From the IMG/VR virus record IMGVR_UViG_2526164662_000032, positions 1 to 24,112 of that record: DNA of 24,112 nucleotides; one strand, 5' to 3'. Shown one piece after another: positions 18,001-24,000 of the stretch. The DNA is from a virus. Taxonomy: Duplodnaviria; Heunggongvirae; Uroviricota; Caudoviricetes. Within the stretch, counting starts at the first letter, position 1; every line of letters starts with the position of its first letter. Made by a program: the position numbers.

Positions 18001-21000
18001 GCTGTTGAATTTTTTGGAACGTGTATAGGGCAGAAATTTTTGTTTTGGGACATGGTTGGGACGCCGTAGTACATACGAACTCTGCCGAATAACGTATGAT
18101 ATTATTTTTTAATCTCTTGGAATACATTATAGAAACAGAATGCTCTTGGGCGATTTTTAGTGATTGTTTAAATAGCCCTGTCATGCAGTTAATGTGACGG
18201 CAACTACCATTAAAACAACTGATATTTAAAGATATTATTTCAGAGTCTGGCTCTATGGGGCATGTATGGGACACTCTCCGTCAACTGCTTATTGAGTAGT
18301 TCTATTTGCCCGATATTGTTATCTTTCATCCATGCTCCGTAAACGTTGAATACCATTTGTGCATTTGCATGGCCCATTTGGTTTGCTATGAAGCTTGGAT
18401 TCGCTCCTGCCGATAATGCCCAACAGGCATAAGTATGCCTGGACTGATAGGCTTTTCTGTGCCGCAGTCCTGCTCGCCTTAATGCAGATGCCCAGGAATC
18501 TCTGATGGAATCTGCTTTATAGTGGTGACCGACTTGCTGGCATTTTTTCACCAGTTGCGGATTAAAAACAAACGTGCATTCATGGCGTGCAGTGCGACCG
18601 AACTCCCGAAGCTTGACGTCAATTTGATACTGAGGGCCAAGTCTTGTCATTTCAGCCTGGCTTTTCAGGGCATCAACAGCTGGTTGAACAAGATGAATAA
18701 CACGATCAGTTCCCGCTTCTGTTTTTGGTAGAGTGAACTCCCCGAGTTTTGTATAATTACGACGGATAGTCATTGTTTTAGCTTTTAAATCAATATCCTC
18801 CCAAGCGAGAGATATTAGCTCACCGTGACGAATGCCTGTGTATACTGCTAAGGACCACAGGTTTTTCGTTTGTTGATGGTGACAGGCATCAATAAAACGA
18901 ATAAATTCGTCTCGTGTGAGCGGATCTGGTTCTGTTCTGGATCTCTTTAATGGTGTCAGGCCGTTAAATGGGTTTGACACGATATAGCCGTTATCAGCCG
19001 CAAATTGAAACATTCCTGCAATTGTCGTCATGTAGTAATTAACCGTAACTACTGACCTCCCTTTAATCGGCGTTGTTTTTCCGTTAGAGAGATTATGATA
19101 CCCGGTTAACAAATCTTTCCTGATAAACAGTAAATCTTCCTTTGTTACCGACGAAGCAAGACGTTTTTCCCCTATGCGAGGAAGCATGTTTCTCACCACG
19201 GATTGATACCGACTGAATGCATTACTTCCTATCTCAATTTTCTTAAGGTCCAACCATTTTTCCGAAAGTGCCTTAACGGTTATCTCTCTTTTTCCCAGAC
19301 CAAAGTGTTTCAGGTTAGGGGAATTAGGGAACTGCGCGGCGTAGTCGAAACTCCCCATTCTGATTGCAAAACAAACGGAAGTGCGAAGTTCACCTGCGAT
19401 CTTCCGGTTTTTGGCGGTGTCAGGAACACCGAGGTTTTCTCTGACACGTTTGCCATTATAGTGAAACCATATACGGAGTGATCCTCCATGGTTTTCAACG
19501 CCTGTCGGGTATGATGCGTTACTCATTAAACCTCCCAGACGTCCAGGAGCATTAACAGGTTAACCGGAACTTGCATTTTTGGCACCTGGTTGTTTCTGGT
19601 TTTCGATCCATCGCATAATTTCTTCGATGTTGTACAGGCATTCACTGTAGTGCCCAGGATCACCTTCTACAGCGTAATGGCGGTATTCTTTTCCCTGCAT
19701 CCATGACTTTCTTCTAGCCCGCTCGATGGTGCCGGGCTTTAGCCCTGTTGATGCAATAAGGACTCTCTCCGTACACCATTTGCTGGGGGTTATCTGATAG
19801 ATGATTGTCTGCATGCCAACCTCATAAAACTTTCATCCACGGCAGTGGCACCACACGTCAAACATTCGTTTCACAACTTCACGGCAGTAGAAGCCGTCGA
19901 CATCACGGGTCAGGTCGTAGCGATTGCCGAATGTCTTGCGAACCCAGAACTCAAAAGCCGTATGCATGTATCACCTCCGTTGCATTGCGCGTAATTTTTT
20001 CAGGTGCATTTCCTGCTCAGTGCCCGCCAGAATTTTGCGGTACTCCTGGTGATCGATTCGTTCAAACAGTTCATTAAAATCGTTTATTTTTACCGACTGT
20101 GTTCGCCCATCCATTCTTCTGTACAACACAGTGTTGTTTATGCAGCGAATAATTTTTATCGGGTAGCCAGCACTATCGGTATACAGTTGCCCCTGATTAA
20201 TCAAAGCGAACATTTTTTCTCCTGCTCCCTGAGTTGTGAGAACTTCAGAGTCGTATGTTTGTAGCGGGTTCAATACTGATGATTTCTGCCGAGATAAGCA
20301 TCCCGGCAAGCCAGAGTTCTCCGTTCAGGTTTTCATCCTTGCATTCCATGCCGCCGATATTAATGGTGGCTATGATATCGCGCTCATCCTCGACTTCTTC
20401 ATAAGGCAGCGTTGCGTACAGGCTTTCAATGGCGCAACTGATAACATCCAGTCCGGTCAGATTGCCGCCGACAGAAACTTCGAATGTTTCGCGGTATTCC
20501 CATAGCCCGAAAGTTAATAGAACAGTTTGTTTTGCCATGCGTCCGTACAACGTCAGATTCGGGTCATAGTTCATAACTTCAGATGAGGAACATTGTGTCT
20601 CGATGCTATTCATTTTGTTACTCCTGATTTTTTTCGGATTGCCTTTTTCAATTTTTTACCGTTATTCACGTTACAGTAAATTTCGGCAAGTTCGCGTGAT
20701 AACATTATTTCTCCGTTATGTTTATCTATAGCAATGTGATCGGGATTATCACGAATAAACTTCTTTATCATTGGCATTGCCATAAACTCTTCTGGCGTAT
20801 AGATGAGTGTATGGCGGCGAACGTGTTTTATCACAGGTGTTTTATGTTTTGATTCAACCTGAAATACATTAATTTTATTCTGATTTGACATGTTTAATGT
20901 TCCAATGGTGTTTCTGGCATACCATGAGTATTCAGATCGTGAATCATTTCATCCAGAAGAAGTTCAAGCCCTTCTCGTCCCATAGCAGAGACAATGAAGC

Positions 21001-24000
21001 CATTATCAGGATCTGCGATGAGCATTTTTTGATAGAGAAACAGAACTCGCCCCATGCCTTCAGCTTCGCCATATTTTTCAATGAATCTCCATTCGACATG
21101 GTTTTGCAGGGCAATGCGAAGTGGCCCTGGGTAGATACTCAGGCAACCATGTTTACCCTTGTAAATAACTGCGCGATCTGTAGTTCCATTATCGTTAGGG
21201 ATATCAATGGTGCCGTTCTTGCCTTCTTCTTCATTTATAAACGTCGTCACATACAGCCATCGCCATTGAGCAATCTTCATATCGACTGAAAATCGTCCCA
21301 GTAATCCGGCATCATCGGCTTCAGCAATACATTGCATAATTCTTAGACCGTGAGAATTTGGATAATCGTATTCACCATCATTAAGCCGCTGTACGGCCTC
21401 AACATAATCAATGGTTGTATTGCCAATTTTTATGCCATGTGGCGTAACTTCTGGTCGGAACTCTGAATGATTCATAATGTTTGCTCCTTTGCTGGTGGAA
21501 TAATCGTGTAACCCGCTCTTTTTGCCATCCACAGAAATGTATCCATGCAGCCAACGAATTCATTATCCAACAGATGTTTTGAGTAAATTACTTTCCCATT
21601 TTCAATGGTTAGCAACACTCTTACTTTTTCGTGTATTACCCCCCCCTGCTCAGGCTCATTCTGCATTTTATTTCGTGCTGATGTCTCCATTATTTTATCT
21701 CCCATAAGCCTTGCGCAAATACAGGTTGGCTATATGAAGATAAGAATCTCCATGTTGTGCAATGAGGCAGGCAGTTTTATACGATGCCTTATGTTTCAGG
21801 AAGGTCATAACATAATCTCCTGCGAATAAAGGTTGCAACAATCCCCGGCGATAAAACCGTAATAAACATTCAGGGAATATTTATTGTTATTGCGCTAATT
21901 CTTTTTCGGCAGCAGCTTTTGCATATTCACATGCAAAATTCAGAATTTCGCTGCCAAGTACTTTTGTTTCGTGATTACTGGACATACGTAATACCTGTGT
22001 TGCATGCAATAAATGATAAACATTTACCGCAAATGAATCAGGCTCCAGAACAAATGCCTTCGTAATTATCTTGCTGTGAGGTTGTTTCTGTCATTGCTCC
22101 TGAAGTGCATGCGAGCCTGTTTTTGACAATTCTCTTTCCTCTAATCACTATATCGGCAACATCTATTGCCTTTACAACCTCCGGGAGAAGTTCCTGGTTT
22201 GTATAACCAAAGTTATCAACATGGAGAACAGTTATGTTTTCGAACTTTTTCATGGCTTCCTCAGCTGACATGTATGTTCTGTTATATAGTGAGTCTCAGA
22301 AGTGTTTTCATATTGAGACTGTTTCCGCAATGGTTGAGAGAAATGTCCGTATGTATCTTGATGGCAGAAGTGGCGATTATGTCACTCTGGCTTTCGGCTC
22401 CTCAGTTGAAGAACTTCGTGAAATTCGCTCTCAGCTTGTAGAAAAGCGCGGCGATGTTATTGCCCCATGGTATCTTATGAAGCCCGGGCAATAGGCCCAC
22501 CAGTTAACAGCCACATCGGATCGCAACCAAGCGCATTAGCCAGTGGAATGATCTGGCTTGCGGGGACTTCGCAGATACCGCACTCCCAGTCGTTTATGGG
22601 GTCGTTGTAGGTGTGAATCATGCGTGCCAGGTCTGCTTCTGTCAGTCCAACTTTTTTACGTGCGGCTTCTATACGTGTGCCAATGCTTTCCTCCTGGATG
22701 TCTGGCTGATTTACGGTAACAGCAGCAGCGCTATTTTTTTCACTCAGCAGAGAAAGAGGATCGCATCCCAGGACATTTGCCATGGGGATTAGCATGCTGA
22801 TGGTTGGTTCGTATTCTCCACTCTCCCATTGCAGGATAATCTCTTCGTCAAGATCGAGCAGTCTGGCCAGTTCGGTGGTCGTCAAACCGCAGGCTTCACG
22901 TTGGGTGCTAAGGTTAACCATGTATTCAGGCTGTTTTTCAGGAGCAATATCTTGTCTTGAATAAAAAATTGCGTTTTTTACTTCGAAGGCGTAATCAGTG
23001 GCCAAAGCAACTATGGTATCGCCAATTTCACAGTATTCATGGTTATTTGATGTAGCTAATAAATATCCAGCTTCAAAAAGAACGGCGGTATTTTTTAGCG
23101 CATCCAGTGGGTGCATGGAAAAGCCATTAAAAGTCAGAGTCGGTTTTGCCCTCATCTCATTAACTCCATCTATTTGGAATGAGAGCATAATAGAACCTGC
23201 TATAAATTATGGCAATAGCAAGTTCTATTTTTTTGGGTGATTTTTGTTACCTTATTGATATTTAATAAAAAATATTTCCTTTTTGATTCAAAGCAAAACT
23301 GAGTACCAGAATAAACGCCCGATAATATCAACCTTATCAATACTGGTTTCTTCATCTGGGTATTCGTCACTGTTGTAACTGCGGATAATCAATTTTCCAC
23401 CTGGTCTTCTGTGTAGTTGTTTAATGCGCTTTAGTTGTCCGCCACAACCATCATCTTGTCCAATAGCATACAACTTACCATCGACAATTCTTTTGTTGTT
23501 GGTGTCAATAGCTACGGTCGTTCCATCAGGGATTATAGGCTCCATACTGTTACCAGTCGCCGGAAAACATAGCACTCCACTTCCGTCAGAGTTTGCGCCG
23601 ATCCGACGAAGGGTAGCTTTTGAAAACCTAAGTTTTAATCCATTATGATCTTCGCTAATCACTTTCCCAGTACCACACGCAAACTCAATATCTTTAAGAA
23701 AAGGGACTTCAACCTCATCATCACTTAGAGGCGTGTGCTCATCCCACGACTCTATCTTCCCCCATTCGGATTTTGGTGGAATAGATGGTTTCTTGTTCTC
23801 TGCCCTCATAGAACCTACACCAGAACTTAACCATTCCGGTGTAACACCGAGAGCATTAGCGAGATCGACAATTTTCGTTGTTCCTCTTGCATTCCCCGAT
23901 GCTATTCGCCAAATGGTCGGTTGAGCCATGTTTGCTGCCTTAGCCAACTGAGCTTGGCTCATTCCCATTTCGTACATTGCAAAGTTGAGCCTATCTGCAA

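Follow-up and report, generated by a model that had tools for sequence, protein, structure and literature searches.

The question raised by this locus is what is encoded by the small genes packed between the excisionase gene xis and the immunity region of an Escherichia coli prophage, and whether they are new. The DNA analysed, which is called the window here, is a stretch of 24,112 nucleotides of a Caudoviricetes virus (IMG/VR record IMGVR_UViG_2526164662_000032, positions 1 to 24,112). An earlier note, made from the sequence alone, had described its positions 19833-22253 as an array of six uncharacterised early genes without recognisable sequence, of the kind among which novel anti-defence or host-takeover genes might be found. 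Judged by its sequence, the array is no discovery: it belongs to a phiP27-like E. coli prophage as a known module that public annotation already contains. It is an ordinary early-left accessory cassette, and on balance we favour reading it as the accessory and non-essential part of a PL-type early-left operon carried by a phiP27-like temperate phage. The ~3-kb stretch in question shows 99.9% nucleotide identity to phage ASU11, a phage from an O80:H2 strain whose source is given in its record as mitomycin C induction, and five complete E. coli genomes are equally close. The genes L03-L08 of phiP27, a Shiga toxin 2e (Stx2e) phage, are syntenic with the array at ~92% nucleotide identity. Moreover, portions of the stretch are found again in 896 records of E. 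coli and in 44 of phages, Stx1a- and Stx2a-converting ones among them, and this recurrence means that the module has been annotated many times. As counted by megablast, the gene of its acidic DUF5406 protein (p3) is found in 204 of the 5426 complete genomes and that of p5 in 81 of them.

The genes of the array, named p1 to p6 from xis onwards, were called from the open reading frame (ORF) listing and from the RefSeq annotation of the 99.9%-identical locus of E. coli strain CD45, and the two agree (Table 1). The leftward array between xis and the block of the helix-turn-helix (HTH) protein and the CI repressor is indeed tight, as had been described: stop and start codons overlap by 4 nt at p4/p3 (20610-20613) and p6/p5 (21472-21475), p5/p4 and p2/p1 are separated by 2-3 nt, and the reported ribosome-binding sites are found as Shine-Dalgarno-like sequences ahead of p1, p2, p3, p5 and p6, that ahead of p4 being weak. 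The number of genes has to be corrected, for the interval holds six intact annotated genes spanning 19833-21690, together with a conserved 37-codon ORF and a broken homologue of phiP27 L08, and what had been taken as the last gene (22038-22253) is a truncated frameshift product of this homologue, caused by a 1-bp insertion. The ratio of nonsynonymous to synonymous substitution rates (dN/dS) against phiP27 and strain EC12, which rests on small underlying counts, is 0.09-0.25 for p1, p2, p4 and p5, 0.25-0.44 for p6 and 0.44-0.54 for p3. Therefore, these early-left accessory genes are real, being under purifying selection and more than chance ORFs, with p3 the least constrained.

Their products are less unfamiliar than the earlier note had supposed. 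Only the basic p4 is without a family; the others are catalogued in PF13973, PF17400 or PHROGs (Table 1; phrog_5451 and phrog_4587 for L08), and all of the PHROG matches are of 'unknown function'. No product matched a recombination family (Exo/Bet/Gam, Erf, RecT, Rad52) in Pfam, NCBIfam or PHROG, or a replication, Kil, enzyme or defence family in Pfam, NCBIfam, PADLOC or PHROGs, so that the profile searches did not give the assignment to known recombination or replication families which the earlier note had said would speak against it. In addition, the PADLOC profiles of anti-phage defence gave nothing at E <= 0.01 for p1-p6 or L08, and PDB sequence searches with p2-p6 and L08, both single-protein and profile, gave nothing significant.

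The regulatory layout around the array is that expected of an early-left operon. The motif ATAG-N6-CTAT occurs four times in the window against 0.37 expected, a number reached by none of the shuffled sequences, and all the sites are confined to the regions upstream of the HTH gene and of cI. We regard the four sites as candidate CI operators, which would define OL and OR. The left pair (23190-23203 and 23215-23228) overlaps the putative PL just upstream of the HTH gene. Since no leftward terminator-like site was found between 24112 and 19500, it is likely that a single CI-repressed early operon runs into xis-int in the order PL-HTH gene-L08-37-codon ORF-p6-p5-p4-p3-p2-p1-xis-int. We infer the co-transcription of these genes from this arrangement, and the timing of their expression and all the molecular functions proposed below are put forward in the same sense. 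In the lysogen, the CI repressor would act on the ATAG-N6-CTAT operators that overlap the promoter just upstream of the HTH gene. Upon induction or infection, leftward transcription would proceed through the HTH gene, L08, the 37-codon ORF and p6-p1, then through xis and int, with translational coupling at several of the gene junctions. The products would be small cytoplasmic proteins without enzyme signatures, most likely binding host or phage proteins or DNA. Among them, p2 would probably modulate transcription as a small basic protein, as RgdR, a regulator of E. coli O157:H7, does, and p3 would probably have a binding partner, contacted through its acidic loops and the YDPN motif that is invariant at its N-terminus.

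Several points weigh against this picture. The whole promoter scan gave fewer sites than shuffled sequence (6 vs 10.4), and the promoter call therefore depends on the adjacency to the operator motif. Internal promoters are possible, with a promoter-like site at 22094-22065, and a rightward gene is embedded within the operon. Furthermore, p2, which lacks the RGD motif, is only a remote relative of RgdR, and the view that the products are binders and not enzymes would follow from the absence of matches for two confident structure models.

The comparison with other phages points to two layers in the array. The order of the 37-codon ORF, p6, p5, p1, xis and int is kept, between the repressor and xis/int, in phage CharmingMan and in Klebsiella phage ST16-OXA48phi5.3, and the Aeromonas phage AsXd-1 retains the 37-codon ORF and p5, whereas the genes for DUF4222 (p2), DUF5406 (p3) and p4 are absent from all three. 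In phiP27, from which p4 is absent too, there is an SPFH/Band-7 gene, L05 (L003 2480-3307), first called 'serine protease', and in strain EC12 an SPFH gene and a 62-aa ORF lie between DUF5406 and p4 (L008 3328-4340). This pattern of retention and absence makes the first set look phage-intrinsic and the second look like exchangeable cargo. We assume that the syntenic core (the 37-codon ORF, p6, p5 and p1) probably serves the phage's own early development, and that the swappable layer (DUF4222, DUF5406 and p4, with the SPFH gene in relatives) probably modulates the host.

Within the core, p1 carries C28 plus a C-terminal CHC (C40-H41-C42), matches phrog_3871 at E 1e-32 with a dN/dS of 0.10-0.15, and adjoins xis in CharmingMan and ST16-OXA48phi5.3, where it is 66-75% identical. 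The match of p6 to phrog_340 is at E 1e-24, and its core is present, 44% identical, in CharmingMan and the Klebsiella phage; a weak phrog_4792 match had made it a candidate domain paralogue of the phage's Rha/Ash/ORF6N antirepressors, which was rejected as the pairwise E values exceed 2. For p5 a confident structure model was obtained, which matched no solved structure and, in a Foldseek search of BFVD, nothing at E < 0.001; the label '2-polyprenylphenol hydrolase', given by depositors to its Klebsiella homologues, was rejected because of zero profile support. The 37-codon ORF lies between L08 and p6 behind an AGGAG ribosome-binding site, and its product (MTFLKHKASYKTACLIAQHGDSYLHIANLYLRKAYGR) is small and basic. 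It is 97-100% identical in five related loci and shows 54-59% protein identity to its counterparts in CharmingMan, AsXd-1 and the Klebsiella phage, in which it is invariably upstream of the p6/p5 block. It is an annotated coding sequence in CharmingMan and unannotated in AsXd-1 and in the RefSeq, ASU11 and phiP27 records examined. As for p4 in the swappable layer, its isoelectric point (pI) of 10.0 and net charge of +9.9 agree with its earlier description as strongly basic. With a dN/dS of 0.18, it is the sole product without a family, having zero matches in Pfam, PHROG, NCBIfam, PADLOC and PDB, and its relatives amount to only 11 protein clusters, which belong to E. coli, Citrobacter and Pantoea (54% identity).

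The broken end of the array bears on how its products might act. Compared with ASU11 and CD45, the window has its 1-bp insertion at 22049/22050, which breaks the frame of the L08 homologue; the 3001-base length which the window shows across the stretch is found in none of the five 99.9%-identical genomes, and thus the insertion is apparently in none of them. It would be either a strain-specific pseudogene mutation or a sequencing error. The C-terminal (3') half of L08 is coding, with synonymous differences (pS) of 0.05-0.14 vs nonsynonymous differences (pN) of 0.02, whereas the 5' half (22094-22253), though ~97% conserved, shows a pN close to its pS and has a stop at codon 5 in one relative (L010). 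The phiP27-style call of a 121-aa L08 was rejected, as a coding signature was not found in the 5' half. The nucleotide conservation of 22095-22251 exceeds that of the flanking genes, and a perfect TTGACA lies there on the + strand (22123-22128); this segment may serve to regulate the rightward gene. The latter matches phrog_6104 at E 1.5e-44, has a dN/dS of 0.14 at a dS of 1.3 vs EC12, and matches phiP27 L09 in its first 30 residues only; its start adjoins the one annotated for L08, its 3' end runs 20 nt into the HTH gene, and it is unannotated in CD45. The HTH gene, the first gene past the putative PL, probably has its true start at the ATG at 23155. The C-terminal domain of L08 and the N-terminal domain of this neighbouring HTH protein are 31% identical (E 9e-5), and phrog_4587 matches both. 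This paralogy hints at a regulator-binding or decoy role, and L08, whose gene is broken in the window, may be a decoy, partner or binder of the adjacent HTH regulator.

The same paralogy is consistent with the alternative that the array encodes modulators of the lysis-lysogeny decision, functionally akin to the lambda exo-xis genes (ea8.5, ea22, orf60a/61/63). These are small, non-essential early genes that affect lysogenisation and induction (PMC3824215, PMC8614690), and they occupy the same location beside xis in the PL operon. However, tblastn gave no match to lambda 27700-36000 (int to N) at E <= 0.05, Pfam gave no match to Ead_Ea22, DUF1382 or DUF1317, and L08 is inactivated in the window, yet the remaining array is intact. 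Since no similarity to the lambda early-left genes was found, the exo-xis region is a positional and conceptual analogue only, and we consider this alternative doubtful, although it has to be kept in mind beside the reading of a non-essential accessory cassette.

The product p3 of that cassette is strongly acidic, as had been noticed earlier, with a pI of 4.05 and a net charge of -14.5, and it belongs to DUF5406, matching PF17400 with 76.6 bits (cut-off 25) over profile positions 1-116 of 116 with the invariant family residues conserved. When 1.84 billion representatives were searched with a profile, 477 DUF5406 cluster representatives came up, which are mostly stand-alone proteins of 100-125 aa. 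Members of the family are encoded by temperate phages, by the telomere phage phiHAP-1 and by lytic Pseudomonas putida phages of ~200 kb, and Pseudomonas prophages carry the gene in their early-left arm. In the lytic jumbo phage Peetri (L012 3701-4327) and in phiHAP-1 gp30 (L013 3761-4357), DUF5406 forms the C-terminal half of ~200-aa proteins, the N-terminal extensions of which gave no family match. A database protein (P0043) matching ~60% of p3 also has a Band 7 domain, which may reflect a read-through or merged gene call. The AlphaFold model of p3 is usable (predicted local distance difference test score, pLDDT, 79; predicted template modelling score, pTM, 0.71), and it presents an alpha/beta domain whose N-terminus, where the invariant YDPN motif lies, is poorly ordered. 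Neither sequence nor fold similarity to any solved protein, including the known DNA mimics, was found.

The suggestion that p3 is a DNA mimic agrees with its charge alone. Of its residues 16% are acidic, and these lie mainly in two loops (71-78 and 90-99); moreover, p3 is matched in acidity by two neighbours, p5 (net charge -12.8) and the HTH protein (-19), so that the mimic reading is not supported by structure. Classic DNA mimics have a higher share of acidic residues than p3. The wider proposal, that at least one product of the array, DUF5406 above all, inhibits a host immune system (restriction-modification, RecBCD or other) early in infection, has more in its favour. Acidity is kept in the family, with a net charge of -8 to -19 in ~30 relatives, some of them ~50% identical, with one exception whose C-terminus is aberrant. 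Phages that are otherwise syntenic differ in whether they have the gene, and the invariant YDPN lies in a low-confidence N-terminal segment, as is often the case with docking motifs. Its dN/dS, the highest in the array, is based on ~12 synonymous changes. Moreover, phage accessory regions are rich in counter-defence genes (bioRxiv 10.1101/2023.04.06.535777), and the spread of DUF5406 across phage lifestyles, together with its patchy presence, leaves room for an inhibitor role. On the other hand, the acidic residues of p3 are not spread along a DNA-like surface, Pfam scans of the ten longest DUF5406 relatives gave no additional known or partner domain, and a full-text literature search found DUF5406 mentioned in no paper and the accession numbers of the six proteins cited nowhere. 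The earlier interpretation of this region is partly supported, in that the genes are real early-left accessory genes; its anti-defence element, reasonable as a prior, gains no positive evidence here. DUF5406 would be the best anti-defence candidate in the array on circumstantial grounds, and we regard such a role as unlikely. A bolder version is less probable again, namely that DUF5406 is a new family of phage inhibitors blocking a conserved host defence or DNA-processing enzyme and that p5 is a new fold with a core early function. In that case YDPN would be the docking motif, and the inhibition would have driven the spread of the family among temperate, telomere and lytic jumbo phages of Gammaproteobacteria.

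The kinship of p2 with the RgdR family had been overlooked in the earlier note. With a pI of 9.7 and a dN/dS of ~0.1, p2 matches PF13973 with 56.3 bits against a gathering cut-off of 27 and is thus a DUF4222 member; RgdR (ECs1581), taken from the Sakai genome, reaches 82 bits on the same model. RgdR is a 99-aa prophage-encoded DUF4222 regulator in O157:H7 (PMC10877973; PMC3378721), which activates LEE1, of the enterocyte effacement locus (LEE), as well as type III secretion while repressing motility; the family to which it belongs is prophage-associated (PMC3378721). A full-text search for DUF4222 gave only RgdR-related or incidental mentions. Both proteins are small, basic and prophage-encoded, RgdR by the cryptic prophage CP-933C / Sp7 (marked 'untypable' in the Sakai record), but p2 has 80 aa instead of 99, and the pairwise BLASTP alignment covers only 27 aa with 30% identity (E 0.19). 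In this alignment the RGD at RgdR residues 20-22, which matters for the activation of type III secretion (PMC3378721), faces QGQ at p2 residues 7-9. The context differs as well, p2 standing next to xis in a lambdoid early operon and rgdR upstream of a primase gene in Sp7. From the short alignment and the QGQ in place of RGD, p2 is a distant family member and no RgdR orthologue. The genes nleA, nleH, nleF, nleG and espM1 in the window are effector genes of a type III secretion system, which gives the host a type III secretion background and makes a connection of p2 with that system plausible though unproven. That p2, and perhaps other products, are prophage-expressed and, as RgdR does, retune the host's transcription (LEE/type III secretion and motility) is nevertheless the least probable of the alternatives, for the similarity is marginal, p2 lies deep within an apparently CI-repressed operon, and the same module occurs in strains of varied sources.

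As to the surroundings, this integrase is flanked in CD45 and other strains by the chromosomal gene yecE (DUF72), but the DNA to the left of the prophage here (17-18200) instead belongs to another prophage, of which it forms the effector-rich end with nleA, nleH1-2, nleF, nleG and espM1, and it also holds a Lom-family gene, tail-fibre genes and copies of the insertion sequences IS66, IS630 and IS256. The similarity to the CD45 locus begins only at 18175, and this arrangement suggests tandem or rearranged prophages. Rfam gave no match within the window. The positions of all the features are collected in Table 1.

Table 1. Features of the int-cI interval in the window (strand -, leftward; +, rightward)
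Feature	Positions	Strand	Basis or assignment
int	18240-19526	-	ORF listing and RefSeq annotation of the CD45 locus
xis (excisionase, DUF1233; RefSeq xisR)	19560-19814	-	PF06806, 101 bits; downstream neighbour of the array
p1, 44 aa	19833-19967	-	phrog_3871, function unknown
p2, 80 aa, basic	19971-20213	-	DUF4222 (PF13973), phrog 285
p3, 122 aa, acidic	20245-20613	-	DUF5406 (PF17400), phrog_3409
p4, 93 aa, basic	20610-20891	-	orphan
p5, 193 aa, acidic	20894-21475	-	phrog_1515, = phiP27 L06
p6, 72 aa	21472-21690	-	phrog_340, = phiP27 L07
37-codon ORF	21695-21808	-	conserved; AGGAG ribosome-binding site; no RefSeq annotation
L08 homologue (68-aa RefSeq form), broken	21887-22094	-	alignment with ASU11 and CD45
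Conserved stretch	22095-22251		~97% nucleotide identity; annotated as L08 5' half in phiP27 and ASU11; coding signature not found
Rightward 80-aa gene, phiP27 L09 position	22252-22494	+	phrog_6104; antisense to the leftward operon
Two-HTH-domain protein, annotated 'CII-like'	22475-23188	-	HTH_3 and HTH_19; phrog_4739, phrog_4836
Putative PL	23187-23228	-	TTGCCA-17-TATTAT, 10/12 matches; two overlapping operator-like sites
CI-type repressor (HTH and S24 peptidase)	23288-24034	-	PF00717 and PF01381
Two ATAG-N6-CTAT sites upstream of cI, OR/PRM side	24039-24052, 24097-24110		motif search

Prophages of pathogenic E. coli, both phiP27-like and Stx-converting, harbour the module, and its genes would be among the first expressed on induction. 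If one of its products blocks a host defence or retunes virulence regulation like RgdR, this would bear on the spread of Stx phages and on the biology of enterohaemorrhagic E. coli, and DUF5406, p5, p4 and the unannotated 37-codon ORF are worthwhile experimental targets. Compared with known systems, p3 resembles the DNA-mimic anti-restriction proteins Ocr and ArdA in its small size, its strong acidity and its place among the early genes of a phage, but shares no detected sequence or fold with them. The array resembles the lambda exo-xis region (ea8.5, ea22, orf61, orf63, orf60a) in being a group of small, non-essential and poorly understood genes at the xis-proximal end of the PL operon, while homology to it is undetectable and the left arm here is without homologues of exo/bet/gam, kil, cIII, ral and N. 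The location of the 37-codon ORF is reminiscent of those of lambda cIII and kil, the rightward gene recalls sieB, which in the RefSeq record of lambda is likewise opposite in strand to the surrounding leftward genes, and the four operator-like sites have the same layout as OL/PL and OR/PRM of lambdoid phages. From phiP27 the window copy differs in carrying p4 and lacking the SPFH gene L05, in its frameshifted L08 and in its int/xis allele, the xis products being ~50% identical at the protein level. On the other hand, phiP27 L03-L08, ASU11 and the Stx1a- and Stx2a-converting prophages share with it the gene order, the family assignments and the location between xis and the immunity region.

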